From positions 1 to 22,456 of the forward strand of contig CBFDTI010000014.1 of assembly GCA_965612795.1 (NCBI GenBank): DNA of 22,456 nucleotides. The letters run 5' to 3'. Position numbers and translations under genes: made by a program. Source of the DNA: an uncultured bacterium (GTDB lineage Bacteria; Hydrothermota; UBA3073; NMUJ01). This document shows positions 8,265-22,339 of this stretch, in pieces (position 1 is the stretch's first letter; each line of letters opens with the position of its first letter). Under the pieces are notes generated by a model. It saw only the letters and a program-made list of their open reading frames with translations. It was not told the DNA's origin and made no database searches.

Positions 8265-9854
8265 ATGCGTTACTTACTATTATCAATGTTTCTTGTTGCA
8301 ACCACCATCGTGGCGGTACCAGGTGATGTAGAATATAAGTTACCAACACCGGGGCCATGTCCTACGGGGTTGGCGTTTGATGGCAAATATCTATGGGTGG
8401 CGGATCGCAAAACTGACACCCTGTACGCTATAGACCCCGTAACTGGTGAGATAAATAAGGTGATACCATCGCCGGGCTATTGGCCGATGGGGTTAGCATT
8501 TGATGGCAAATACTTATGGAATGTGGATCTTGACAATAGGCTGATTTATAAGATTGAGCCCAACTCAGGCACTATAGAGGATATTATCTACTGTCCATGC
8601 GTATATCCACAAGGGCTTACATACGATGGTACCTATCTATGGGTGAGCGATAGCAAAACGGATATGATCTATAAGCTTGACACCAAGGATGGTACTGTGT
8701 TGACATCATTTGTAGCGCCAGCGTCGGCATCTACGGGGTTGGCGTTTGATGGCAAATATCTATGGGTAAGCGATCATGGTAAGGACGAGATCTATATGGT
8801 TACGAAGGATGGTGAAGTATTGCTTATCATTGCATCGCCATTCCATTACCCCTATGGGATGGCGTTTGATGGTAAGTACATATGGAGTGTTGATTACGCA
8901 GCTGATACCATCTACAGGATGCGTATCGCAGACGATGAATATTATTCCGTAAGTGATGTAAAATATGCAACTGTCGAATATACGCAGGAATTGAGGAATT
9001 ATGGGCCTGATATGGTCATGCAGCTGGATTTCTACCTCGCTATACCAGAAAATAGAATGAATCAGAAGCTGCTTGGTGAGCTGGAATTCAACCCCTATCC
9101 CACAGATTTCGTAACCGACAAGTGGGGGCAGCGGTTCGCTCATTACAGGTTTACAAACGTTAAAGTAGCGCATTCCATAAAGGTGAGCATGAAAGTGAGA
9201 GTCAAAACCTGTGACGTACGATACTATATATTACCGGATAGGGTTGGTAGCTTAAGAGATATTCCTCGTGAAATAAAAAGGAAGTGGTTGGTTGATGGGT
9301 CAAAATATCAGATACACAATCCTATCATACAAAAAGCGGTAAAAGAAGCGGTGGGTGACGAACGTAATCCGTATTGGATGATGCGTAAAATATTCAAATA
9401 TGTGGTCGACCATGTAGATTATGAGCTTGCAGGTGGTTGGGAACCTGCCCCTGTTGTGTTGCAACGTGGTAAAGGGTCGTGTTCCGAATATTCGTTCGTA
9501 TTTATCGCACTCTGTAGGGCAGCAGGCTTACCGGCAAGGTATGTGGGTGCAGTAACACGAAGGGAAGAGGATAGTTCATGGGATAGGGTGTTTCATCGGT
9601 GGACAGAGGTGTACATACCACCTTATGGCTGGATACCGGTTGATCCATCAGGTGGTGATACTCCATCACCAAGGGGGCAAGCTAACGCTATTGGGCACAT
9701 ACGTAATTGCTATCTTATAACCACAGTAGGTGGCGGTGATTCAGAATATCTGGGGTGGTCGTACAACTCAACCGCTAAACTGAAGTCGTACGGTAAGTGT
9801 GAGGTGGAGCTTGAAAAGGTTGCTGAGTGGGAGCTGTTAAAACTACAGCCTTAG
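8265..9854 (+). CDS. Secreted protein with an N-terminal beta-propeller (GLAFDGKYLWV repeats) and a C-terminal transglutaminase-like domain
   Basis: AGGAGG RBS before ATG 8265 and signal peptide MRYLLLSMFLVATTIVA. Five G[LM][AT][FY]DGxY[LI]W repeats. GSCSEYS...ALCRAAGLPARYV...HRWTEVY..PYGWIPVDP triad. Confidence 0.85.
   Translation: MRYLLLSMFLVATTIVAVPGDVEYKLPTPGPCPTGLAFDGKYLWVADRKTDTLYAIDPVTGEINKVIPSPGYWPMGLAFDGKYLWNVDLDNRLIYKIEPNSGTIEDIIYCPCVYPQGLTYDGTYLWVSDSKTDMIYKLDTKDGTVLTSFVAPASASTGLAFDGKYLWVSDHGKDEIYMVTKDGEVLLIIASPFHYPYGMAFDGKYIWSVDYAADTIYRMRIADDEYYSVSDVKYATVEYTQELRNYGPDMVMQLDFYLAIPENRMNQKLLGELEFNPYPTDFVTDKWGQRFAHYRFTNVKVAHSIKVSMKVRVKTCDVRYYILPDRVGSLRDIPREIKRKWLVDGSKYQIHNPIIQKAVKEAVGDERNPYWMMRKIFKYVVDHVDYELAGGWEPAPVVLQRGKGSCSEYSFVFIALCRAAGLPARYVGAVTRREEDSSWDRVFHRWTEVYIPPYGWIPVDPSGGDTPSPRGQANAIGHIRNCYLITTVGGGDSEYLGWSYNSTAKLKSYGKCEVELEKVAEWELLKLQP
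8362..8767 (+). repeat. 37-bp exact intragenic direct repeat (8362-8398 and 8731-8767)
   Basis: CTACGGGGTTGGCGTTTGATGGCAAATATCTATGGGT occurs twice, in propeller blades 1 and 4. Confidence 0.9.
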
Positions 9855-10649: not shown

Positions 10650-13445
10650 CTATCTTTTAATGGTTACAGGTTGTGGGCGCCTTGCTTCTGTACCCAGTAT
10701 CCTACGTAGTACTGCAGCTGTATGTGAAGTGGGGTGTTTGGCTACCTCCTCGGGTGGGCCAGCAACTACAACTTCACCACCTTCGTCACCACCTTCGGGA
10801 CCGAGATCTATTATCCAATCCGCGTATTTTACAACCTCGGGGTTGTGTTCGATCACCACCACTGTGTTACCTCTATTCACTAATCTATCGAGTACCTTAA
10901 GCAACAGCAACACATCTTCAAAATGCAAGCCGGTCGTCGGTTCATCCAATAGATACAGCGTGTTACCCGTACCTATTTTCGATAGCTCACGTGCGAGCTT
11001 GACACGCTGTGCTTCACCACCTGATAACGTAGTGGCAGGTTGACCCAACTTTATGTAGCCTAACCCCACATCTTTAAGTAACTGTAGCTTACGTTTGATC
11101 GCAGGTATATCCTTGAAGAATTCATACGCCTCGTCTACGCTCATGTTGAGTACATCGGCGATATTTTTACCTTTGTATTTAACTTCGAGTGTCTCACGGT
11201 TGTAACGTGTACCTTTGCATACCTCACACGGTATGAATATATCAGGTAGGAAGTGCATCTCCACCCGTATAAGGCCTTCACCGCGACAGGCTTCACATCT
11301 ACCACCGGGTAGGTTGAAGCTGAACCTCGACTGCGTGTATCCGCGTTTGCGGGATTCTTTGAGCTCGGCAAAAAACTGTCGTATTGGGGTGAATGCTGAC
11401 GTGTAGGTGGCTGGGTTAGAGCGTGGTGTACGTCCGATTGGTGATTGGTCGATGTTTATCACCTTATCGATCTTATCTAAGCCGATGATCTCGTCGTATT
11501 CACCGGGTACATCACGTGAGTTATAGAAGTGACGTGCTAACGCCTTATAGAGTGTATCGTTGATAAGGCTCGACTTGCCGGATCCTGACACACCGGTGAT
11601 CACTGTGAACAAGCCCAGCGGTATCTTCACGGTGATGTTTTTCAAATTATTGTGACGTGCACCCTTTATGATAAGCCATCCCTTGTATGGGCGACGACGT
11701 TTGGTGGGTATCGGTATCTCTTTTATGCCTGCAAGGTACTGACCGGTGAGCGATTCTTTGCATTTCATTATATCGGTGGGTGTACCAGTAACTACGACGT
11801 GACCGCCTTGCTCACCGGCACCGGGGCCGAGATCTATGACCCAATCTGCTGACATTATCGTGTCACGATCGTGTTCAACAACGACTACTGTATTACCCAT
11901 ATCACGTAGGTTCTTGAGTGCATCCAACAACCTATGGTTATCACGTGGATGTAACCCAATACTGGGTTCGTCTAAGACATAGAGTACACCGACGAGGCCT
12001 GACCCTATCTGGGTGGCCAACCGTACACGTTCCTCTTCACCACCCGACAATGTATCGATACGCCTTGATAGTGTCAGGTAGCTCAACCCCACATCTATGA
12101 GGAATTTAAGCCTACGTTTGATCTCCTTGATTAGCCCCTGGGCGATTTTTGCTTTGACACCTTCGAGTTTTAACGTGTCAAAGAATTCGTACGCTTTGTC
12201 GAGCGACATGTCGGTGATTTCGGCAATATTTTTGCCTGCAATCTTTATGGATAACGCTTCGGGTCGTAATCGTGTACCGTTACATGCGGGGCATGGCTTA
12301 AACACCATGTAGCGTTCGATCTCCTCACGTATCCAGTTAGATTCAGTCTCATGGTATCGACGTAGTAGGTTACCGCGTACACCTTCGAAGAACTCATCCC
12401 CATAGAGGATGACCTTCTGTATCTTTTCGGGTAGCTTACCAAACGGCTTATGTAGGTCAACCCTATAGCGTTGACTTAAACTGTGTAGGTGCCAACGTAA
12501 CCACTTGCCGGGTGGTCCCCATGGTCTTATGGCACCCTCGTATATGTTGAGGTCGGGATTAACAACAAGCTCGGGGTCGATATCCAACGTTGTGCCCAAC
12601 CCCTTACATACCTGACATGCACCAAACGGTGAGTTGAACGAAAACAGACGTGGCTCTATCTCGCCATAGGTTACCCCACAATAGGGGCAGGAAAATTTTG
12701 TACCAAACAACAGGTCACGCTTCTGATCGACAAGATGTATGATTACCAAGCCGTTGCTTTCGTTAACTGCTATCTCGATGGAATCTGCCAACCTCGACCT
12801 TATGTCGGGTTTGATGATTAGGCGGTCGACCACTATTTCGATGTTATGTTTCTTGTTTTTATCAAGTGTTGGCACCATATCCAGCTCGTAGATGGTGCCG
12901 TCCACACGTACGCGGATGAACCCCTTACGTGCTATCTTATCGAATAGGTCACGATATTCGCCTTTCTTGCCACGGACGAGTGGCGATAGTATCATAAACT
13001 TTGTACCCATAGGAAGGTTGAGCAATTTATCCACAATCTGGTCTATGGTTTGTGAGGATATCTCCCTACCACATTTGTAGCAATAGGGTGTACCCACACG
13101 TGCAAACAACACACGCATATAGTCGTAGATTTCGGTCACCGTACCGACGATAGAACGTGGGTTCTTGGCGATCGTACGTGGCTGTATGGCGATGGCGGGA
13201 GTTAACCCCTCTATGGCATCGACATCGGGTTTTTGCATGACACCCAGGAAATGGCGTGCATAGGAGGAGAGTGACTCCACGTAGCGACGTTGTGCCTCCG
13301 CATAGAGGGTATCGAAGGCGAGTGAGGATTTACCCGAACCTGATAACCCGGTTATCACGATGAACTTGTTTTTGGGTACCTCAACCGTTATGTTCTTTAG
13401 GTTATGTACACGTGCACCTCGAATTATGATTTTGTCGCTAACCAT
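10650..13445 (-). CDS. uvrA: Excinuclease ABC subunit A
   Basis: GARVHNLKN, two Walker A motifs ([18 protein letters not shown]), CxxC zinc fingers, LSGGE signatures, LDEP Walker B motifs; 931 aa. Confidence 0.98.
13211..13322 (-). repeat. Direct repeat, copy 1 (inside uvrA); partner at 21071-21182
   Basis: 112 bp, 106/112 identical to 21071-21182, offset 7860. Confidence 0.95.
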
Positions 13446-13537
13446 AATTTTATAAAGGTAGCTGAGATTTTCATCGAATCAATACCCTGGTTATTGTTCA
13501 TCTAAATGCACTCCCTTAGGCAACACTAAGAAATGCG

Positions 13538-13565
13538 TTGACTGCTTACCTTAATTCGCTATTAT
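13538..13565 (+). promoter_or_regulatory. Candidate cassette-array promoter (Pc-like)
   Basis: TTGACT-N16-TATTAT, pointing into the + strand gene array and divergent from uvrA. Confidence 0.5.
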
Positions 13566-13608
13566 TTATGGGATGGGAAACTATAGCATAAGTAAAAGAA
13601 TTAAAAGG

Positions 13609-13635
13609 AACGGTTCGTATATGAACGAGTTATAT
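13609..13635 (+). other. Candidate attI-like recombination site (array entry point)
   Basis: AACGGTTCGTATATGAACGA-G|TTATAT. GTTATATGAAATGC (13629-13642) is the 13/14 reverse complement of the left end of the next attC (GCACTTCATATAAC, 14190-14203). No full attC stem lies upstream. Confidence 0.5.
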
Positions 13636-13667
13636 GAAATGCTCGCGAAAATCAGGGAGGTAACAAA

Positions 13668-14159
13668 ATGGTGAACGTTATTGAACCGAAGAAGTACGTT
13701 GGTTATTGTGGCGTATACTGCAGAGGATGTGGTATGCTTAGGGGAAGGACGATAGCCAGAGTTGCTGAGTCGCTTAGGGAATTAATAGAGGTTTACAAAT
13801 TTGTGCATTGGGTACCTGAGCATGAACCAATAGATTTTAACTTCAAGGATTTCAAAGCAGGCATAGACTATTTTTCCGATAGCGCCAAAGGTCCCTATTG
13901 CCAAGTTCCGTGCAAGGAAGGAGGAGGAAATCCATTTTGTGAAGTACGTAAATGCGCGGAGAATAGAGGAATCGAATTTTGTTTTCAATGCACTGAGTTC
14001 CCATGCGATAAACTTTCACTTATCTTAAAAGAACACCCAGATTTGGTAAAAATCAAAGAAATTGGCATAGAAAAATGGGTGGAAGAAGAAGAAAAAAAAG
14101 CTCAAATAGGGTACGACTGCCATACAAGAAAGTACTATACAGAAGCGAAGATGAAATGA
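13668..14159 (+). CDS. DUF3795 family Cys-rich protein (cassette 1)
   Basis: YCGVYCRGC...CQVPC...CEVRKC...FCFQCTEFPC pattern; GGGAGGT RBS. Confidence 0.85.
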   Translation: MVNVIEPKKYVGYCGVYCRGCGMLRGRTIARVAESLRELIEVYKFVHWVPEHEPIDFNFKDFKAGIDYFSDSAKGPYCQVPCKEGGGNPFCEVRKCAENRGIEFCFQCTEFPCDKLSLILKEHPDLVKIKEIGIEKWVEEEEKKAQIGYDCHTRKYYTEAKMK

Positions 14160-14196
14160 AGTATCCTCATATGGTAATAGAATTTGCTCGCACTTC

Positions 14197-14284
14197 ATAT
14201 AACAGACGCATATCTGGCTACGGGCTGTCGCCCTCCGCCCAAATTCCCCTTCGGGGAACTTCAGATACGCTCAAAACGTTAGCT
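14197..14284 (+). other. attC site 1
   Basis: ATATAAC...GTTAGCT ends. Inner inverted arms GCATATCTG (14208-14216) and CAGATACGC (14262-14270). Central hairpins GGGC-tgtc-GCCC and TTCCCC-ttc-GGGGAA. 88 bp. Confidence 0.8.
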
Positions 14285-14307
14285 GACATGCCAATAAGAG
14301 GTAAAAA

Positions 14308-14336
14308 TGGACTCTTTAACTACGATAATTTAAAAT
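14308..14336 (+). promoter_or_regulatory. Cassette-internal promoter of the toxin-antitoxin pair
   Basis: TGGACT-N17-TAAAAT upstream of the MNT gene. Confidence 0.45.
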
Positions 14337-14359
14337 CGAGGATGAAATAAGATAAATAG

Positions 14360-14671
14360 GTGGCAAAAATGAAAAAAACGCTTGATAGAATAAAGGAAAT
14401 TCTTAAAAAGCACGAAAGAGAGCTGAAAGAAAAATATGGAATTAAAGAGATCGGTATTTTTGGTTCTTACTTAAGAGAAGAGGCTAAAGAAGAAAGTGAT
14501 CTCGATATTTTAGTGGAATTTAAGCATGATGCGAAGATTAGTCTTTTAGAATTTGTTGAATTGGAAAATTATCTCAGCGATTTGCTTGGGGTAAAGGTTG
14601 ATTTGGTTGAAAAATCCGCATTAAAACCAAGGATTGGCAAACGTATCTTAAGTGAGGTTGTATACGTATGA
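14360..14671 (+). CDS. Minimal nucleotidyltransferase antitoxin (MntA-like)
   Basis: IGIFGSYLR....ESDLDILVEF (GS-x10-DxD) and KVDLV motifs; ATGA overlap with the HEPN gene. Confidence 0.9.
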   Translation: MAKMKKTLDRIKEILKKHERELKEKYGIKEIGIFGSYLREEAKEESDLDILVEFKHDAKISLLEFVELENYLSDLLGVKVDLVEKSALKPRIGKRILSEVVYV

Positions 14672-14910
14672 AAAGAGAAATCGGCGACTATGTAGAGGAC
14701 ATTCTGGAGGCTATGACTAACGCTATGGAATTTACAAAAGATATGTCATACGACGAGTTCGTTAAAGACACTAAAACCGTATATGCGGTTATCAGAGCCA
14801 CAGAGATTATTGGAGAGGCGGTCAAAAATATACCGGAAGACATAAAAAAGAAGTAACCTGACATTTCTTGGAGAAGTATGGCTGGAATGAGAGATAAGGT
14901 TATACATGCC
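14668..14910 (+). pseudogene. HEPN (DUF86/HepT-like) RNase toxin, inactivated
   Basis: YAVIRATEIIGEAVKNIP, then in-frame TAA at 14854-14856 where Tyr is expected. The frame continues PDISWRSMAGMRDKVIHA (Rx4H motif), then similarity ends. Confidence 0.85.
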
Positions 14911-14938
14911 ATGCTGATGCGGGATTGGCCTTCGGGTC

Positions 14939-15020
14939 ACTTAACACGAGGGTATGTGGCTTCGCCTTCGGCTACGCCCAAACCCCGCCAAGGGGGCTTC
15001 ACATATCCCAGAGGTTGTGC
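14939..15020 (+). other. attC site 2
   Basis: ACTTAAC (RYYYAAC)...GTTGTGC ends. Inner arms GGGTATGTG (14950-14958) and CACATATCC (15000-15008). Shares the GGCTWCG...CGCCCAAA...CTTCA scaffold with attC1. 82 bp. Confidence 0.8.
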
Positions 15021-15057
15021 GAAATTGCATTAAAAAGTTACATTGGAGGTAAAAAGG

Positions 15058-15630
15058 ATGAGGAATCTTAAGGCAAAAATGTTCAACAAAAAGGCATCCG
15101 ACCCGCGAAATAAACCCCATCAGATTATTGAAACTATGGGATTGAAATCCGGTCAGATTGTCGCTGATATAGGAGCAGGTGGCGGTTATTTTACATTGAG
15201 GTTTGCTGAAATAGTGGGTGAAGATGGAAAAGTTTACGCTGTAGATACAGATGAAAAGCTTTTAGAATTCGTGAATAGTAACGCTAAACAGAAAGGATTG
15301 AATAATGTAGTTACGGTATTGGTCAAAGATAAATTGGAACTACCAAAAGAAAGTTTGGACCTTGTGTTTATGCGCAATGTGACACATCATATATCAAACC
15401 GTGTTAGTTACTTTAAGGAGCTGAAGAAATTTCTAAAGCCTTATGGCAAAGTGGTCATAATAGAATATAAGAAAGGCAAACCGTTTACATTCCGTGGAAT
15501 GTTTGGACATTATGTAACCAAGAAAGCTATTATTCGAGAAATGGAAGAAGCAGGGTATGTTTTGGAAAAAGAATTTGATTTTCTACCAGAACAACATTTT
15601 ACAATTTATTTAAATAAACAAAAGTTCTAA
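15058..15630 (+). CDS. Class I SAM-dependent methyltransferase (cassette 3)
   Basis: VADIGAGGGYFT, VYAVD, LDLVF and LKPYG motifs; GGAGGT RBS before ATG 15058. Confidence 0.9.
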   Translation: MRNLKAKMFNKKASDPRNKPHQIIETMGLKSGQIVADIGAGGGYFTLRFAEIVGEDGKVYAVDTDEKLLEFVNSNAKQKGLNNVVTVLVKDKLELPKESLDLVFMRNVTHHISNRVSYFKELKKFLKPYGKVVIIEYKKGKPFTFRGMFGHYVTKKAIIREMEEAGYVLEKEFDFLPEQHFTIYLNKQKF

Positions 15631-15670
15631 CACTTTGTAGGTGGACAACTTGAGGGTTCACATCTGAACC

Positions 15671-15752
15671 ACTCAACAGATGGTCATGTAGCTCGCTTAT
15701 GTTAATCAAAATTTGTTTGACAAGCAACTTTTACATATCCAGAACATTGATA
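15671..15752 (+). other. Degenerate attC site 3
   Basis: ACTCAAC left end, arms GGTCATGTA and TACATATCC, CAAAATT-hairpin-ACTT scaffold. The terminal GTT reads ATT (15746). Confidence 0.5.
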
Positions 15753-15770
15753 AGCTTACAGAAACGTAAC

Positions 15771-15798
15771 TTGACATGATTTGCGTTATGATTACAAT
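15771..15798 (+). promoter_or_regulatory. Sigma70-like promoter upstream of tsaA/trmO
   Basis: TTGACA-N16-TACAAT. Confidence 0.55.
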
Positions 15799-15827
15799 CC
15801 AGTGAAGAGAAACCAAATAGTAACGTC

Positions 15828-16313
15828 ATGGACGTGATAAAGTACAAGCCGATTGGGATTATTCATTCTCCATTTAAAGAACCCAAGGGGACACCCATAC
15901 AACCTACAGGTGCCAAGAATATTGATGCAACGGTTGAACTATTTCCCAAATATGTCGAGGGGTTGAAGGATCTGGAAGGCTTTTCTCACATCATTTTGAT
16001 ATATCACTTCCATTTATCCAAGCATACATCTTTAAGGGTGAAACCATATATGGATGATGAGGTACGTGGGGTGTTTGCAACACGAGCTCCAAGTAGACCA
16101 AATCCTATCGGCATATCGGTGGTGCGTCTTGTTAAGGTGGAAGGCAACATATTGCATATCCAAGATGTAGATGCCGTGGATGGAACCCCACTCTTGGACA
16201 TAAAACCCTATGTACCGGAATTCGACACAAGAGAAGTAGAGAAAATAGGATGGCTCGAGAAGAGGGTGCATAGACTTCGAGAGACAAAAGATGATGGAAG
16301 ATTCACAAAATGA
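15828..16313 (+). CDS. tsaA: tRNA (t6A37)-N6 methyltransferase TrmO/YaeB family
   Basis: KPIGIIHSPF, GLKDLEGFSHI, GVFATRAPSRPNPIG, DAVDGTPLLDIKPY. Confidence 0.93.
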   Translation: MDVIKYKPIGIIHSPFKEPKGTPIQPTGAKNIDATVELFPKYVEGLKDLEGFSHIILIYHFHLSKHTSLRVKPYMDDEVRGVFATRAPSRPNPIGISVVRLVKVEGNILHIQDVDAVDGTPLLDIKPYVPEFDTREVEKIGWLEKRVHRLRETKDDGRFTK

Positions 16314-16383
16314 TCCGGTACATTAAATGGAAGGGAGAATAGGGAATTTACAGATTTTTCGAAAAGGTTAAAGACCATGGTTA

Positions 16384-16397
16384 ACTTCATACGACAG
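16384..16397 (+). other. Possible attC left-end remnant
   Basis: ACTTCATACGACAG is 12/14 identical to the attC1 left end ACTTCATATAACAG. No right arm seen. Confidence 0.3.
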
Positions 16398-16583
16398 CGA
16401 AGATTTAGAAATTGAAATTCCGGATCAGGTAGATGATAGATGGATAGGCTTACCTATAGAAATACGGTGCCTATAATATAGTCGGGCTTGAGTATTTCTG
16501 CTGGAACTCTTTCGAACAACCATGCATTTTCCATGGCAACTTATTTTATTGACAAACTAATATTATCAGCGAAATTAACAAGG

Positions 16584-17840
16584 ATGGAAAGGAATACGGC
16601 AAAAATATCTCCTACCGAGATGGTAAAAAAGCAATTAGAAAAGGCAGCAAAGATTATGAAACTTGATCCAAATTTGCTGGAAATATTAAAGCATCCCAAG
16701 CGAGTGGTTGAAGTGTCGATCCCTGTAAAAATGGATGATGGCTCAATAAAAGTATTCACAGGATACAGATGCCAGTATAATGATTTCAGGGGACCATTTA
16801 AAGGGGGTATACGATTTCATCCTGATGTAACAAAGGAGGAAGTTATAGCACTCGCTGCTTGGATGACTTGGAAATGTGCAGTAATAGATATTCCTTTTGG
16901 TGGAGGCAAAGGAGGGGTAAAATGTGACCCCACTAAGCTCTCTATAAGGGAATTGGAAAGATTAACAAGACGTTTCACATATGCTCTCATGCCGTTACTG
17001 GGGCCATCTATTGATATCCCTGCTCCTGATGTATTTACAGGTGAAAAAACCATGGCTTGGATTATGGACACTTTTAGCGTATTCCAGGGTCAAACAGAAC
17101 CTGGTGTTGTAACAGGCAAATCACGCACTATAGGGGGATCAGCAGGAAGGAGAGAAGCTACTGGCAGGGGAGTAGCCATCTGCACAAGGGAGATGATGAA
17201 ATTATACGGAGACGATATAGAAGGGAAAACTGTGGCAGTTCAGGGATTTGGTAATGTTGGTTCTTATGCCTCAAAATATTTAACTGAAATGGGTGCAAAA
17301 ATAATAGCTGTAACAGATATCACAGGTGGGGTATTTGATGAAAATGGGTTAGATATTGATGGTTTAATGGAATATGTGAAAGAAAAGAAAAGAGTAAAAG
17401 GATTCACAAAGAAATCGATAACAAATGAAGAATTATTCAAACTGGATGTCGATATAATAGTTCCTGCTGCCCTCGAATGCGTTATAACAGAAGAAAATAT
17501 GAAAGATATAAAAGCAAAATATATCTCCGAAGGTGCAAATGGTCCAACAACACCAGAGGCAGATGAATATCTTTACAATAATGGCAAAATAGTAATTCCT
17601 GATATTCTGGCAAATTCTGGGGGTGTGCTCGTAAGTTATTTCGAATGGGTGCAGGATAGAATGAGCTACTACTGGACTGAAGAAGAAGTTTTCACAAAGA
17701 TGGAAGAAAAATTGAAAAAAGCAGTAAAGGAAGTTTATGAAACAGCAAAGAAATACAACATAGATCTAAGGACAGGTGCATATATACTTGCAATAAAAAG
17801 GGTGGCAGATGCATATTATGAAAGAGGTCTATTTCCATAA
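16584..17840 (+). CDS. gdhA: Glu/Leu/Phe/Val dehydrogenase, probably glutamate dehydrogenase
   Basis: GPFKGGIRFHP, MTWK, GGGKGG, DIPAPD, ATGRG, VQGFGNVG, EGANGPTT, PDILANSGGV motifs. ATG 16584 is preferred as start. Confidence 0.9.
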   Translation: MERNTAKISPTEMVKKQLEKAAKIMKLDPNLLEILKHPKRVVEVSIPVKMDDGSIKVFTGYRCQYNDFRGPFKGGIRFHPDVTKEEVIALAAWMTWKCAVIDIPFGGGKGGVKCDPTKLSIRELERLTRRFTYALMPLLGPSIDIPAPDVFTGEKTMAWIMDTFSVFQGQTEPGVVTGKSRTIGGSAGRREATGRGVAICTREMMKLYGDDIEGKTVAVQGFGNVGSYASKYLTEMGAKIIAVTDITGGVFDENGLDIDGLMEYVKEKKRVKGFTKKSITNEELFKLDVDIIVPAALECVITEENMKDIKAKYISEGANGPTTPEADEYLYNNGKIVIPDILANSGGVLVSYFEWVQDRMSYYWTEEEVFTKMEEKLKKAVKEVYETAKKYNIDLRTGAYILAIKRVADAYYERGLFP

Positions 17841-17935
17841 ACTTTCTTCGTTTGATTCACCTGAAAAAATTGCACAGGCGATAAATAGAAAAATAACACC
17901 TATTAAAAAATTCGAAGTAGAATTCTATTATCCAG

Positions 17936-18348
17936 TTGAAAAAATCCAGCAGAAGTAACTTAGTCAAAATATATATTAGTCTCATTATAGCCCTCGCTAT
18001 CTTAGCAGCGATTAATGTTTTCTTACCCCAAGGTTCTTTCCTACTAATTTTGCCAGCAAAAGAACTTCCAGCTTCCAAACCAGTACTTGCCTTTGTGAGT
18101 GCAGTCATTATGCTCATCCTTTATGGTGGCTTAGGCTTTATTGGATTAAAGCTTTCACAAAAACTCGGCTTTGCCGATATCTGGGATTCAAGAGTTACGA
18201 ATAAACAGAGGTTTTTGATTCCCGCACCTGTTGGGATAGCTATTGTGTTTTTCATCTTCGTTACTTCAGGAAGTTTGGATTTCTTGCTGCAGTTAGCATA
18301 CACTTCTGGACAGATGTTATATGGCATGTCATCTGGAGGATGATTTAG
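17936..18348 (+). pseudogene. CPBP (CAAX protease/Abi) family intramembrane metalloprotease, internally deleted
   Basis: N-terminal transmembrane region in one frame. From 18262 a second frame reads YFRKFGFLAAVSIHFWTDVIWHVIWRMI* (CPBP terminal HxxxD motif). The central EExxxR and FxxxH motifs are missing. Confidence 0.7.
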
Positions 18349-18350
18349 TT

Positions 18351-18803
18351 ATGCCACTTCATATAACACAGTATAAAAGGTTTGCTTTTACGCCGGGAAT
18401 CGCTTTGATTTTGTTGCTAATTGTACTATTTCTCGTAGCTGGATGCTTTCATAAAACCGATCAATGTGTAAATTGGGAGAATGGATTCGAAGATGTGGAA
18501 AATTTTAGGAAAGCGACACCCGAAGGGCTGAGGGAGGCTGTTGAGGATTGCATTCTACACGGAGATTGTTGGATCGAGGAGGAAAACTGGTTGGAGGTGG
18601 GACCCACAGATACGGCACGAAATTACGAACTCGCCCCAGATATGGCGGATGCAAGTGTAACCCCTGAGATAGCTCATATTACAATCCCGCCTATAAAGGA
18701 TATAGAGCCTTTAATTTCTATGCTGGGTTGGTTAGCTTCAATGATAGAAGAGGTCAAGAAGTATATCTTGACAATTTCTATGCAAGGGAAATTGAATAAA
18801 TGA
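18351..18803 (+). CDS. Hypothetical lipoprotein-like protein, true start uncertain
   Basis: Hydrophobic stretch ending in lipobox-like LVAGC. No recognised domain. Confidence 0.45.
   Translation: MPLHITQYKRFAFTPGIALILLLIVLFLVAGCFHKTDQCVNWENGFEDVENFRKATPEGLREAVEDCILHGDCWIEEENWLEVGPTDTARNYELAPDMADASVTPEIAHITIPPIKDIEPLISMLGWLASMIEEVKKYILTISMQGKLNK
18355..18367 (+). other. attC left-end remnant
   Basis: CACTTCATATAAC is identical to 14191-14203 and lies 6 nt after the CPBP stop. The rest of the site is absent. Confidence 0.6.
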
Positions 18804-18804
18804 G

Positions 18805-19346
18805 ATGAAAAGCAGCATTACCTCTTCAGTTATGTTGCTGGTGTTTTTCATATTCGAAGGCTGCTTATACTTTAATGAAAGTAACCAGAGCATAGACTGG
18901 AATCTGTTAAAAGAAGATGGATTTGAATATGAGAAAGTATTCGATTTTCCAGAAAATTGGCAAGACCAAACTGCACACCCTAAGTAGTAGCTCCAGATTT
19001 TACCCATTAGTATATTGCCATAGTGGGTTTCAACCGTAAAGGGCTTATCAAGTATGGAACAAGTTACGGGGTAACCGGAGGTAAATAAACTATGAATCTT
19101 TAGATGGCGGATTCGTTATCGATTGCAACAAATGGTATAAAGCAGGGCTATCCGCAGATTTCAGCAAATTCGGGGTATGGTGGGATGGAAATTCCCGCTT
19201 ACAGTTTGGACTGATTATATGGTATATGCTTCTCGTTTGGAGCTTGCTATTTTGGTATCTCAAATTATTTAAATTACGAAGCAGCAGCTTATTTCGATGA
19301 AGCAAAAATCTACGTGGGGAAAAGAAATGATCCGCATTTCACCTAA
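18805..19346 (+). pseudogene. Fragmented exported/lipoprotein-like gene
   Basis: Signal-like MKSSITSSVMLLVFFIFEGC, stop at 18987. Protein-like pieces continue in other frames and end AAAYFDEAKIYVGKRNDPHFT*, where the stop overlaps an attC-like ACCTAAC (19341-19347). Confidence 0.4.
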
Positions 19347-19370
19347 CGAGGACGTACTGCGAGGAATAGA

Positions 19371-20114
19371 ATGGAGCCAATAACACAAATGTTGATATAT
19401 CTCTTCATAGGTCTTTTTGCCGGATTTATGAGTGGTATGTTTGGAATAGGAGGAGGATCTGTAAGGACGCCGCTCCTTTACGTGGCCGGGTTGCCTTTAC
19501 TAAGTGCTTTTGGAATAAATCTAGTGGTTATACCTTTCTCCTCGCTTATTGGCGCTATAAGTCACAGAAAGAATATAGACTGGAAAATTGCCCGATATGT
19601 AATAATTGGCGGGATAATGGGTACTTTGGCAGGTGCATTTTTAACAGGAATTATGCCAACTTTAACTTTAGCGATTATCTTTGTTATTGTTTCCATAGTA
19701 ACAGTATTTGGGATTTATTTCGATAAGATTTTCCCGGAAATTGCTCAAAAAATTAATCCAAATGCAAAGATTGTCATTTTAGGGACATTCTTTCTCAACT
19801 TCCTAACAATTCTACGTGGAGGTAGTGGTGGCAGTTTATTTCCCCCTTTCCTAAAAATGATAGGCCTTAATATTCGAAAAGCAATAGCCACATCACTGTT
19901 TGCGACCATCTTCACAGCAACTGCAGGAGCGATTGTGTTTTGGTCTCGTGGCAATGTACCATTTCTCCCCGCTGTAATGGTAGTTGCAGGTTCAATAATC
20001 GGAGCCCGAATAGGTAGTTTAACGTCTTTGAAGACAAAGCCAATGTGGTTAGAAATTGGACTTTCATTATTCATTGTGATTCTTGCTATAATTGTGCTGG
20101 TTAAAGCAATATAA
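19371..20114 (+). CDS. Sulfite exporter TauE/SafE family membrane protein
   Basis: GLFAGFMSGMFGIGGG..P, second repeat GGSGGSLFPP..AIATSL, multiple transmembrane helices. Confidence 0.9.
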   Translation: MEPITQMLIYLFIGLFAGFMSGMFGIGGGSVRTPLLYVAGLPLLSAFGINLVVIPFSSLIGAISHRKNIDWKIARYVIIGGIMGTLAGAFLTGIMPTLTLAIIFVIVSIVTVFGIYFDKIFPEIAQKINPNAKIVILGTFFLNFLTILRGGSGGSLFPPFLKMIGLNIRKAIATSLFATIFTATAGAIVFWSRGNVPFLPAVMVVAGSIIGARIGSLTSLKTKPMWLEIGLSLFIVILAIIVLVKAI

Positions 20115-20156
20115 TAACTGAATATTTTTGCTCACAAACTCTGCAACAACTTCATT

Positions 20157-20211
20157 GCTTCACCTAAATTACCTTTGGTATCTCCTTTTATCACAAAAGT
20201 TGTACGATATT
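20157..20211 (+). other. Degenerate attC right half
   Basis: GCTTCACCTAAATT-ACCtttGGT...CAAAAGTTGTACGATATT mirrors the attC1 scaffold. GTTGTACGATATT is 11/13 identical to GTTGTGCGAAATT (15014-15026). Confidence 0.5.
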
Positions 20212-20260
20212 CCGACTTCGTTGCTGGGAAAGGAGCTAAGAAAAAGTCAATAGTGTTAAG

Positions 20261-20863
20261 ATGAAAAACAAAAAGGAAATAGCAAAATCGATCTATGATG
20301 GATTGAGAAAAGGAGATATTGAATCAACCCTATCTTTAATCTCAGAGGAACTTAAAGAGGAGAAAACCGGTAAGCTTAAAATTACCAAAACCCCCTTACT
20401 TAACTCAATAGGGCAAGAATTGGGCAAATTACTGATTGAGGAGAGCTGGAAATTTGAAAGATTATTGGAATTATGGGAAAGAGGTAAAAGAGACGAAAGA
20501 TTAATTGTAATAAGTGCCTTAGAGAAGGTAAGCAAGAAGGATTATGAGAACTCAAAACAATTTGTTTTTGAGATCCTCGACGATATCGCGGATTGGGAAA
20601 TTTGCGACCAATTAGCTTTAAGGGTGATTGTAAATTTAGCAGTCCAGAATCAAAAAGAGACATTTTCTTTGATGGAACGATGGATAAACTCCGAGAATAA
20701 ATGGTCGAGAAGATTGGCAGTAGCAACAAATCCCACCTTACATAAGGGCGAGAGAAACAGAATCAAAAGTTTGCCTCCAGTTTTTAGATAAGACGATGCG
20801 CGAGAAGGATGGAGATGTCAAAAAGCAATCAGCTGGGCTTTAAGAGAGGTTACGAGGAAAGAT
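20261..20863 (+). pseudogene. DNA alkylation repair protein (AlkD-like HEAT repeat), frameshifted and truncated
   Basis: IADWEICDQLA and W..SENKWSRRLAV motifs. An extra A at 20728-20730 hides IPPYIRARETESKVCLQFLDKTMREKDGDV, and a missing A at 20820-20824 hides KKAISWALREVTRKD. Confidence 0.8.
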
Positions 20864-21070
20864 ATGGAATTAAAAATAGGATTATCTAATGGTGACCTCG
20901 GAGGAAACGCTTCGTCGCTTCACTCCTCGTACTCACCTCGTTTATGTATGTTAACAGCGGTATGCAGGTCGCTTCAAACAAAATAAAAGGAGAAAAAAAC
21001 TATTGCCACGGTGATAAATTAAACGAAGCGATTCCGTAGAGAATTCCACTTCGTAGGTGGATAGTGACAG

Positions 21071-21182
21071 CTATAGCATCAACATCGGGGTTTTGCATAA
21101 CACCCAAGAAATGGCGTGCATAGGAGGAGAGTGACTCCACGTAGCGACGTTGTGCCTCAGCATAGAGGGTATCGAAGGCGAG
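21071..21182 (-). pseudogene. uvrA: uvrA fragment (direct repeat copy 2)
   Basis: Encodes [37 protein letters not shown]; 106/112 identical to 13211-13322. Confidence 0.9.
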
Positions 21183-21208
21183 CTCCTTAAGCATTAAATT
21201 GAGGAGCT
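21181..21208 (-). terminator. Hairpin downstream of mscS, possible terminator
   Basis: AGCTCCTTAA-gcattaaa-TTGAGGAGCT (9/10 stem), abutting the uvrA fragment. Confidence 0.4.
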
Positions 21209-21230
21209 AACCCGAAGTTAGGTCATATGA

Positions 21231-22262
21231 TCATGAACCTGGCTGTGCTTTATCCTTTGGAGTACATTCCAGATACACCGTAGTAATAGGAAACGGTATT
21301 GTGATACCAGCTTCACGGAATTTAGTGTCGATAAGCGAGTTGATCTCATCCACAACATCCCATTGGTAACGGGGTTCTTTCACCCATACTATTAACCTGA
21401 AGTTGAGCGCAAAGTCTGCAAACTTCATAAAGTACACTTGTGGAGAGGGTTCATCTAAGACATACTGGGCGTCACGTGCACATTCAAGCAGAACTTGTTT
21501 GACTTTGACTATATCGCTACCATATGCGACACCTATATCTATGAATACCTTCATCGGTGGCATAGGTAATGTGAAGTTAATTAACTCCGAAGATGCTATT
21601 TTGGAATTCGGTATCACCACAATCCGTTCTTCGAGTGTTTTTATCTTTGTAGTCCTTAACCCAATATCTATCACATCACCTAAAAAGTCACCTACTTGTA
21701 TTCTATCGCCGATAATAAATGGCCTATCTGCAAGTATGAAGAAGCCCGCAATTATATTAGCGAGTACATCTCTTGCTGCAAATGCAAACGCTAACCCGGT
21801 GATACCCACCCCAGCAACCAACCCTTTGATATCATAGCCTGCCACCCTCACGATACCAGCCATACCAGCGATCACGACAATGAATTTGGTAATACGGCCA
21901 CTGAACGTCACCACTGCTTCATAGAGGCGCGATTCTACACGTCCTACTAACCTACTGCGTAGGATTGAGAAGATCACATCTACAATCTGATACATAAGGT
22001 AAGTGCCGACAATCACGAAGGCTATCTTAAACCCTTTATCGATTGTTTGCATAAACGGTAGCTTGAAATACAACACTATGATATAAAGTGTAACCAAAAA
22101 CAGTAGCAGGAGTAACGGTTTTTCTATCTTCAGGATAGCACGGACAACTTTTGCACCTCTGGTGAAGCCTTTTACATACATACGTATGAGCAAACTCAGT
22201 ATTATACCTAATACAATAGTAGAGCTACAGATAATAATTAACCGCATATCAATTAATTTCAT
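21231..22262 (-). CDS. mscS: Small-conductance mechanosensitive channel (MscS family)
   Basis: GLAFAFAARDVLANIIAG, DRPFIIGDRI, GDVIDIGLRTTKI, IPNS, IGVAYGSD, GITIPFP motifs. Confidence 0.93.
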   Translation of the reverse strand: MKLIDMRLIIICSSTIVLGIILSLLIRMYVKGFTRGAKVVRAILKIEKPLLLLLFLVTLYIIVLYFKLPFMQTIDKGFKIAFVIVGTYLMYQIVDVIFSILRSRLVGRVESRLYEAVVTFSGRITKFIVVIAGMAGIVRVAGYDIKGLVAGVGITGLAFAFAARDVLANIIAGFFILADRPFIIGDRIQVGDFLGDVIDIGLRTTKIKTLEERIVVIPNSKIASSELINFTLPMPPMKVFIDIGVAYGSDIVKVKQVLLECARDAQYVLDEPSPQVYFMKFADFALNFRLIVWVKEPRYQWDVVDEINSLIDTKFREAGITIPFPITTVYLECTPKDKAQPGS

Positions 22263-22339
22263 CACACTTTAATACTACTACTTAACCCCTAACGTCAACT
22301 TAAATGTTGACTTTTATGTAAATTTCGTATTTTACCCAT

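Follow-up and report, generated by a model that had tools for sequence, protein, structure and literature searches.

The cassette locus upstream of uvrA

The window (the whole stretch of DNA that was analysed) is a complete contig of 22,456 bp, C14, from the bin of an uncultured bacterium whose genome was assembled into 1.42 Mb on 128 contigs with a guanine-cytosine (GC) content of 0.448; close homologs of its relatives' proteins carry WOR-3 or Stahlbacteria titles. Beside the intact uvrA gene (10650..13445, minus strand; Pfam UvrA_inter, UvrA_DNA-bind and ABC_tran) lies a low-GC, strain-variable island of 7.9 kb. The element in question occupies the head of this island, between 13606 and 15027 on the plus strand, and is composed of half an integron attachment site (attI) and of two, perhaps three, bounded gene cassettes with attC-type recombination sites. 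With a probability of roughly 0.8, we consider it to be the stump of an integron-type platform that has lost its recombinase and whose array is frozen and decaying, i.e., a cluster of attC sites lacking an integrase (CALIN). The uvrA gene is divergent from the array and stands outside the integron.

The attI remnant (13606..13631, plus strand) was recognised by a motif shared with relatives and aligned with contig C39 of the same-genus genome G002, and comprises the putative crossover-proximal binding site and the GTT crossover triplet at 13629-13631. It leads into cassette 1 (13630..14278, plus strand), which holds a DUF3795 gene (13668-14159; Pfam DUF3795, E 7e-13) and its attC, site 1 (14190..14291, plus strand; AAC at 14201-14203, GTT at 14278-14280). 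The start of this cassette is complementary to the left end of its own attC at 13 of 14 positions, within arms of 21 nt (13629-13649 and 14183-14203) that are 81% complementary, so that the signature of a once circular cassette, proposed in an earlier reading of the letters without database searches (the sequence-only reading), is indeed present.

Cassette 2 (14279..15014, plus strand) carries an intact MNT nucleotidyltransferase antitoxin gene (14360-14671; Pfam NTP_transf_2) and a broken HepT toxin gene (14668-14856; Pfam HepT-like), and ends in site 2 (14932..15027, plus strand; AAC at 14943-14945, GTT at 15014-15016). The HepT-like match covers only positions 1-48 of the 120 in the profile. 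The gene is frameshifted, its frame resuming at 14878 and running into the attC (gene region 14668-15033), and it is truncated at the catalytic R-x4-H motif, where the attC starts. In contigs of metagenome run X1 there are 4 extra bases behind 14842, and other contigs diverge from 14909.

The attC sites and their family

Two covariance models were used to search for attC sites. R1 was built from seven hand-collected sites (alignment A6), the window's own sites included, and R2 from 58 sites of other genera and phyla, none of them from the window's genus. R1 scored 82.1 bits for site 1 and 82.0 bits for site 2, and R2 scored 71.9 bits (E 4.5e-14) and 58.1 bits (E 6.3e-11), respectively. When R2 was run over the whole window with its filters off, only these two sites were returned, the next match having 12.1 bits. 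The two complete AAC...GTT palindromes that the sequence-only reading had seen between unrelated genes are thus both located, and the palindromes at 14190-14291 and 14932-15027 are, judged by their sequence, genuine attC-type cassette recombination sites. They start 742 nt apart in the same orientation and no integrase lies nearby, as in a CALIN (at least two attC sites less than 4 kb apart). The ends of the sites are ATATAAC / GTTAGCT and ACTTAAC / GTTGTGC, in which the flanking four bases fit the attC consensus at three or four of four positions. Each site has a mismatch or bulge in the stem, unlike most of the family. Site 2 is 83% identical to a site on contig C39 of G002. Many short contigs match site 1 in its conserved core alone and continue differently beyond it (loose ends at 14232-14236 and 14272-14281), which is expected of a shared repeat.

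Look-alike sites were collected from contigs C38 and C61 of the same genome and from G002. The G002 sites are cleaner, with perfect 11-bp L stems whose sequence is unlike that of site 1 while the pairing is kept, and one G002 cassette starts with a 10-mer exactly complementary to its own left end. The seven sites of alignment A6 share three helices, namely the R box, the L stem and a small inner hairpin after a conserved GCCCAAA box; 80% of the pair cells do pair, against 21-51% when the partners are slid by 1-3 columns. In the model-based alignment of 49 sites, 86% of the cells pair, against 26-44% after sliding, and both sides have changed in 21 of 24 pairs, including 10 of the 11 pairs of the L stem. 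The three triplet pairs are standard in 39-47 of these 49 sites, and the family consensus ends, GCCTAAC / GTTAGGC, are a full fit to RYYYAAC / GTTRRRY. With R1, sites were found in 28 of 41 related genomes, often as co-oriented clusters spaced at 0.5-3 kb.

The evidence that tells cassette recombination from mere repetition comes from the ends of neighbouring sites. If the right end is cut between G and TT, whatever follows the GTT is part of the next cassette and should complement the left end of that cassette's own site. From 49 R1 hits, three with E >0.01 were removed; of the 46 that were left, 32 showed AAC and GTT in register and gave 18 pairs of adjacent sites no more than 6 kb apart, each compared at 8 positions. 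On average, 5.83 of the 8 positions of a left end matched the preceding site's tail, 4.22 matched the site's own tail and 4.08 matched random tails. The preceding site gave the better match in 15 pairs and an equal one in 3, and in no pair was it the worse (Wilcoxon p 0.0003; 0 of 10,000 permutations). Such complementarity to the preceding tail is predicted by integron recombination, and it is not predicted by a repeat family or a terminator. Together with the R2 scores, it upholds the view that these are integron-type cassettes.

A register was found for 45 of the 58 sites, and in these the L stem is perfect and uninterrupted over at least 9 bp in 30 and over at least 11 bp in 24. The spacers are asymmetric, with 1 nt against 5 nt in 18 sites and 2 nt against 5 nt in 5 sites, the shorter one after AAC and the 5 nt before GTT. 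Extrahelical bases define a classical attC and are read by the IntI-specific domain of the integrase in classical integrons.

The genome of the window has five to six sites of this family: two on C14, one each on C8, C12 and C38, and a weak one on C61. All of them lie in low-GC blocks of plus-strand genes, and at least four low-GC blocks other than the present one hold single sites. The single sites on C8 (24589-24676) and C12 (21480-21566) score 66.9 and 45.1 bits with R2; each follows the stop of an open reading frame (ORF) in a low-GC block of plus-strand genes, with no second site nearby. The C61 site is doubtful, with 61 bits from R1, of which it is a training member, and only 15.5 bits from R2. 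A home-made scan of the genome for AAC...GTT hairpins gave 1,567 candidates with coding-sequence noise at the top ranks, and was replaced by the covariance models. Rfam 15 contributed no attC family over the window; its lone match, SECIS_4 at 9440-9476 (E 0.62), was put down to chance.

The array does not reach as far as the sequence-only reading had it, i.e., to 21000, since no site but these two is accepted by either model, and there is no more than a suggestion of a third cassette. This possible cassette 3 (15015..15759, plus strand) would consist of an S-adenosylmethionine (SAM)-dependent methyltransferase gene (15043-15630; Pfam Methyltransf_31) and a decayed attC (15664-15759; 7.9-10.6 bits). 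In the same-genus genome G001 the methyltransferase gene is 93% identical and is followed by a short AAC...GTT stretch and then by an ORF of 1,728 codons. This stretch is read as a putative cut-down attC site; R2 found no site in it. Five remnants had been proposed further along the island, and what stands of them are left-end 14-mers: an exact copy of the left end of site 1 at 18355-18368 (plus strand; repeat search), with which the site on C38 also begins, and a left-end-like 14-mer before the TauE gene (19334..19347, plus strand), whose reverse complement fits the cassette-start motif and which has no model match. As whole sites the remnants stay below threshold. The stretches at 18354 and 20134 reach 10-12 bits (E 1.3-1.9) and that at about 15664 reaches 8-11 bits (E 4-4.5), R1 and R2 give no match at 16384 or 19341, and none of the five folds into a hairpin. 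The attC-like stretch after the TauE gene (20134..20233, plus strand; R1 9.7 bits, R2 12 bits, E 1.6-1.9) is accordingly not significant.

The attI remnant and the recombinase of relatives

In relatives, arrays on long contigs are immediately preceded, in the same orientation, by a tyrosine recombinase gene or by parts of such a gene. There are seven loci in which the recombinase lies 0.8-3 kb upstream of the sites and is co-oriented with them (G003:C9, G005:C2, G007:C120, G007:C114, G007:C96, G013:C9 and G031:C70). The array of G015:C95 contains a recombinase pseudogene; such pseudogenes are common, and in G007 the gene occurs in at least 5 copies or fragments. An integrase adjacent to attI and array, which defines a complete integron, is present in relatives, e.g., in G003:C9, G005:C2, G007:C120 and G013:C9, and absent from the window and the assembled genome. 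The sequence-only reading had placed uvrA in the position of intI, a claim which assumes the classical divergent layout and is not supported: in the present type the recombinase gene precedes the array in the same orientation, with attI starting directly behind the gene's stop codon.

The attI motif of 13606-13631 is found again immediately behind the stop codon of the recombinase gene in about 25 loci of relatives and other phyla, and a 19-nt stretch of it is identical to loci L078 and L082. The full layout has two short palindromic repeats around CGAAC...GTTCG with TATA-rich arms, separated by a CCAAATTTGG-like spacer; the second repeat runs into AACGA and then into the GTT where the first cassette begins. 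The repeats are putative recombinase-binding sites. In the window neither the spacer nor the first (distal) repeat was found upstream of 13606, and the platform is, on comparison with these layouts, truncated about 25 bases upstream of the crossover point. Because of this truncation, loss of the integrase is favoured over loading of the array in trans. Further upstream and facing the cassettes is a promoter-like site (13538..13565, plus strand; TTGACT, a 16-nt spacer and TATTAT) with 10 of 12 consensus matches. The same scan found 6 sites against 4.9 expected, so that the consensus match carries little weight by itself; comparable elements stand before the arrays on C61 and on C39 of G002. At some loci, namely L050 (G015:C95; 6045-6926), L080 (6716-6808) and L016 (280-720), an attC lies directly upstream of a recombinase gene or of a bare attI, and the recombinase-attI module may sit inside arrays or move like a cassette.

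The search for an integrase that the sequence-only reading had called for returned none on the contig or in the assembled genome, where there are only two Xer-like genes. This Xer pair is only about 30% identical to the array-linked recombinase of relatives, and over the N-terminal half. Homologs of the array-linked recombinase were likewise not found in any of the three genomes of the genus (99.5%, 87% and 66% complete). TIGR02249, the profile of the classical integrase, had 0 matches in 272 WOR-3 genomes at E <=1e-40, a threshold that was too strict and had no positive control, and no protein in these genomes exceeds its 265-bit cut-off. The interpretation that the phylum has no integrase was rejected, as the array-linked recombinases, which match the profile with 212-228 bits in two pieces, had been missed.

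The array-linked recombinases have a tyrosine recombinase catalytic core (Pfam Phage_integrase, E 1e-37 to 5e-42, plus Phage_int_SAM_4), and in 28 sequences the Arg, Lys and His positions never vary, with a conservation of 90% or more at the C-terminal His and Tyr. Four of five full-length proteins score 231.8-248 bits against NF040815 (cut-off 220), which NCBI names 'site-specific tyrosine recombinase/integron integrase', and the fifth 214.4, with positions 1-260 of 263 of the profile covered. Against TIGR02249 they remain below the cut-off with the middle of the profile unmatched, the best stretch ending at 173-181 of 315. Among PDB sequences the best match is VchIntIA (2A3V) with 154 bits in two pieces; XerA (5HXY) aligns with 150.8 bits in one piece, and in Foldseek XerA and VchIntIA are level (E 1.1e-15 and 2.3e-15). 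Where VchIntIA has 71 residues (175-245), the recombinase has 29, i.e., about 42 fewer. Because of this shortfall and the continuous alignment with XerA, the recombinase of relatives is, on sequence grounds, a XerA-like protein that lacks the IntI-specific domain. The missing domain and the missing extrahelical bases of the sites may be linked.

The recombinase has in addition a conserved N-terminal domain of about 75 residues (domain model with a predicted local distance difference test score, pLDDT, of 84). By VIA-align, the nearest folds comprise UvsW (Z 7.1), XPB (Z 6.3 and 5.9) and the HARP domain of SMARCAL1 (Z 4.1), with unrelated eIF1-like folds at comparable scores in between (Z 5.3-6.4). 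Foldseek against the PDB gave no match at E <=0.001 (HARP E 0.06, XPB E 0.13-0.3), and Pfam HARP reached 23.2 bits in one protein only, against a cut-off of 25. As a hint and not a finding, the modelled domain may be HARP/XPB-like; the N-domains of UvsW and XPB bind branched DNA.

The family extends far beyond the phylum, with at least 7,965 proteins at E <=1e-30 among 8,000 candidates scored, which, where named, are called integrase, XerD or 'site-specific tyrosine recombinase/integron integrase'; it is common in Nitrospira. R1 found 32 sites (E <=0.01) in 15 of 80 loci from species-representative genomes. All 32 lie on the strand of the recombinase, 31 of them downstream and 1 upstream, in 203 kb of downstream and 397 kb of upstream DNA searched. 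Where at least 1 kb of downstream DNA was available, a site was found in 12 of 17 loci with at least 54% recombinase identity, against 3 of 24 more distant ones, which are mostly from Bacteroidota and Clostridia; in these counts the relatives are not independent, and R1 may miss other attC types. Positive loci include those of Nitrospirae, Atribacteria, Thermodesulfobacterium, Deferribacteres, Gemmatimonadota, Ignavibacteriaceae, a complete Desulfitobacterium genome and four archaeal records (Altiarchaeum, Micrarchaeota, Methanosarcinales and Methanoperedenaceae). The cultured Desulfitobacterium sp. Sab5 (locus L105) has five sites downstream of its recombinase gene. In total, cassette arrays are tied to the recombinase without the IntI-specific domain in at least 10 phyla of Bacteria and Archaea.

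The recombinases of WOR-3 and Nitrospirae are 77-82% identical. Records of WOR-3, Nitrospirae and Deltaproteobacteria (L071-L075 against L065; L117 and L110) fall between 70% and 82%, and in some genomes the recombinase has to itself contigs of 1.5-2 kb whose titles give a high coverage. The identity across phyla and these high-coverage contigs suggest a recent spread between phyla and the presence of multiple copies.

The cassettes of relatives (L048, L053 and L054, from arrays of G003, G009 and G005) are rich in restriction-modification and nuclease genes. Examples include AccI, MjaI and DpnII endonucleases with their methylases, GmrSD, a PD-(D/E)XK nuclease and a NucS-like protein. Such contents fit the view of integrons as stores of anti-phage defence.

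Known systems, rival explanations and the surrounding island

The window shares with CALINs, as defined for IntegronFinder (Neron et al., 2022, PMC9024848; Cury et al., 2016, PMC4889954), at least two co-oriented attC sites less than 4 kb apart, promoterless cassettes, the absence of an integrase from the replicon and the interpretation as a degraded integron. It differs in that half of attI is still attached, and in that its attC family has mostly perfect 11-bp L stems, no conserved extrahelical bases and spacers of 1-2 against 5 nt. The likeness to classical integrons (IntI, attI and the promoter Pc; VchIntIA, 2A3V) lies in the RYYYAAC / GTTRRRY ends with their G|TT crossover, in an attI with two recombinase-binding repeats (predicted here) next to the crossover and in the alignment of the core-binding half and the C-terminus of the recombinase with VchIntIA. 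In contrast to these, the relatives' recombinase gene is co-oriented with the cassettes and has attI after its stop codon, and the protein falls below the TIGR02249 cut-off, without the IntI-specific domain and with the extra N-terminal domain. With XerA, XerC and XerD (PDB 5HXY, 4A8E; NF040815) it has in common the two-domain architecture without insertion and the continuous XerA alignment. Unlike them, it is multi-copy, stands beside attI and cassettes rather than dif, carries the extra N-terminal domain and, given its high identity between WOR-3 and Nitrospirae, seems to have spread horizontally.

Archaeal integrons are reported to be mostly CALINs, with a putative attI that is immediately downstream of intI and semi-conserved across phyla (Ghaly et al., 2022, PMC9668308). 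That position is the same as in the relatives' loci; the six archaeal IntIs of that study are stated to have the IntI-specific domain, in which the recombinase family described here differs. Four contig accession prefixes and one taxon word of the archaeal loci are absent from the accessible portion of its supplement, and the two sets may still overlap. CALINs without integrons are on record for Nitrospira inopinata (Neron et al., 2022, PMC9024848). The literature search found no paper that pairs integrons with WOR-3, nor, in sources that were partly titles and abstract openings, a description of an attC-linked recombinase without the IntI domain or of a link between attC and XerA.

In the preferred explanation, what survives of the platform is half an attI, two cassettes each ending in a folded-hairpin attC and, probably, a third with a decayed site. 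By analogy with classical integrons, cassettes would move as circles, with cutting and joining after the G of the GTT triplet at the right end. Deletion would then have removed the recombinase gene together with the distal half of attI, with no replacement in the genome as assembled; with both gone, the array would be frozen and decaying, as seen in the broken HepT gene and the eroded later sites. The intact form would be that of relatives, with a co-oriented XerA-like recombinase gene, attI straight after its stop codon and then the cassettes.

Several points weigh against this explanation. R1 has the window's sites in its training set and was itself the source of the sites on which R2 was trained, which leaves the two models only partly independent; the 49-site alignment was fitted to a model, which favours structure. 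Extrahelical bases are not conserved in the 45 sites in register. The bottom strand of site 1 folds into the R box, loop and L stem (-15.7 kcal/mol, z -2.3), as the sequence-only reading would have it for both sites; site 2 does not stand out (z -0.6), and the four sites of this genome measured have z of -2.3, -0.6, -1.3 and +1.5. Single-strand folding energy alone is weak evidence, even for good sites. The arrays on C61 and C38 run off the ends of their contigs. The joint expected of a circular cassette 1 (14278 to 13630) is not listed among the contigs, which could hardly show rare circles. Finally, in a metagenome bin of 128 contigs a multi-copy or mobile recombinase may be unassembled or unbinned, so that a lost gene and one not captured look the same. 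Two joints, 13635-15021 (X2, with a 28-nt side) and 13646-14184 (sides of 18-22 nt), were too short to trust and may stem from other arrays sharing the right-end motif, e.g., that of C61.

A first rival concerns only how the DNA arrived and is compatible with the preferred explanation of 13606-15027. A 112-nt fragment of uvrA (21071..21182, minus strand; codons about 42-78) is a 95% identical direct repeat of 13211-13322. The two copies are 7.86 kb apart with sharp edges on both sides, and bracket the island. The block 13323-21182, including the first 41 codons of uvrA, the promoter and the array, could have entered as one piece by a single crossover within uvrA. The repeat would then be a scar of that event, and the integron stump would only have travelled with a larger integrative island. 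The repeat brackets exactly this block, and its GC content of 0.35-0.41 departs from the 0.43-0.50 of both flanks. The displaced 5' end of uvrA expected by the right-hand copy is, however, replaced by 48 unrelated bases and mscS. In addition, the repeat lies inside a 1.24-kb block with mscS (21063-22305) that some strains lack while keeping the island end: contigs of runs X2, X3 and X4 join 21060 or 21062 to 22306 and so skip the uvrA fragment and mscS, and the repeat may belong to a separate insertion of this 1.24 kb. We regard such an entry as improbable. At the joint where the three runs skip 21063-22305 there are 5-7 other letters.

A second rival, to which we give a slightly smaller chance still, is that the array is live and loaded in trans by a recombinase elsewhere, e.g., on an unbinned contig, a plasmid, a virus or in a neighbouring cell. 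The genome is fragmented into 128 contigs, the recombinase of other genomes occurs on short high-coverage contigs that suggest copies missed by bins, and the presence of six sites at five loci within 1.4 Mb hints at spread in the past. In classical integrons, attC x attC excision needs no attI, and by analogy it might proceed here too. What speaks against a live array is the lack of a homolog in the three genomes of the genus, the loss of the distal attI site, and the frameshifted and truncated HepT gene with its eroded downstream sites, as expected without recombination or selection. Between the two origins that the sequence-only reading had left open, loss of the integrase therefore fits better, with its half attI and decayed HepT gene, and loading in trans less so.

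By far the least probable rival, that the palindromes are intergenic repeats (repetitive extragenic palindromes, REP, or miniature inverted-repeat transposable elements, MITE) or transcript hairpins (terminators or RNA stabilisers) merely resembling attC, has in its favour that they are imperfect palindromes of about 100 nt after stop codons, recurring within and between genomes, with the inner hairpin and GCCCAAA box conserved in sequence and weak folding z-scores, but it does not predict a left end that depends on the preceding site's tail rather than its own, a lone right half fused to the recombinase-linked attI motif, or the strand and position of the 32 sites relative to the recombinase, and neither T-run terminators in 13380-15100 nor an Rfam match were found.

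Returning to the stump of an integron-type platform, the window itself is ordinary: a small dead array of the catalogued CALIN kind, in a phylum for which no integron report was found. The sequence-only reading was largely right in its observation and right in kind as to an integrase-less integron-type array, and wrong on extent and layout. Beyond the window, the arrays with a XerA-like recombinase are probably an undescribed, widespread integron variant. Somewhat short of even odds, we tentatively propose this recombinase as a second, very widespread class of integron integrase of Bacteria and Archaea, lacking the IntI-specific domain, maybe bearing a HARP/XPB-like N-terminal domain, and acting on attC hairpins without extrahelical bases at an attI after its own stop. 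If so, the WOR-3 window would be a relic of that class, and many CALINs reported from candidate phyla, Nitrospirota and Archaea would in fact be integrons of this class, either complete or decapitated not long ago, that escape current detectors. Both the detection and the theory of integrons build on a single integrase family, defined by the extra domain that reads extrahelical bases, and the same cassette logic (canonical ends, G|TT, two-repeat attI) is met here with a recombinase lacking that domain and with attC sites mostly devoid of such bases. Should the recombinase do the work, it would explain why integrase-less arrays are common in uncultured lineages, widen the known reach of cassette exchange between domains and offer a natural experiment on how tyrosine recombinases recognise folded single-stranded DNA.

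Beyond the first 1.4 kb, in which alone its construction is still visible, the island is a decaying, strain-variable accessory region. Every Pfam-matched ORF from 13446 to about 21180 is on the plus strand according to the ORF list and Pfam, and the earlier claim that all island genes point this way holds for each such ORF in 13668-20791. The TrmO-like gene (15828..16313, plus strand; Pfam TrmO_N, E 5e-44) has low GC and no attC. It is followed by a strain-variable block of 2.9 kb (16316..19252, plus strand) with a glutamate dehydrogenase gene (16488-17840; Pfam ELFV_dehydrog), a membrane protein, a lipoprotein and a small ORF. Contigs in X3 (depth 150) and X1 join 16315 to 19253 without this block, a joint that puts the end of the TrmO-like gene directly against the upstream region of the TauE gene (19371-20114, plus strand).

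Gene order at the uvrA-upstream locus could not be compared, as the nearest genomes with uvrA are 72-74% identical in that gene and both same-genus bins are without it; over its first 200 amino acids uvrA is 60-74% identical to relatives among the full-length matches. Variable content among relatives and strains, which had been expected of the locus, is nevertheless evident in the contigs without 16316-19252 or 21063-22305 and in G001, which has 5.4 kb of DNA where this genome holds 129 bp, the two sequences reconverging 80 bp before the TrmO-like gene. The 1,728-codon ORF of G001 (L015, G001:C88, 292-5478) has a signal-peptide-like start and a promoter-like site of its own, and lies between the methyltransferase and TrmO-like genes. 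Towards the far end of the island, an AlkD-like DNA alkylation repair gene (20261..20870, plus strand; Pfam DNA_alkylation, profile positions 32-144 of 213) is frameshifted near 20790, its C-terminal part being read in another frame.

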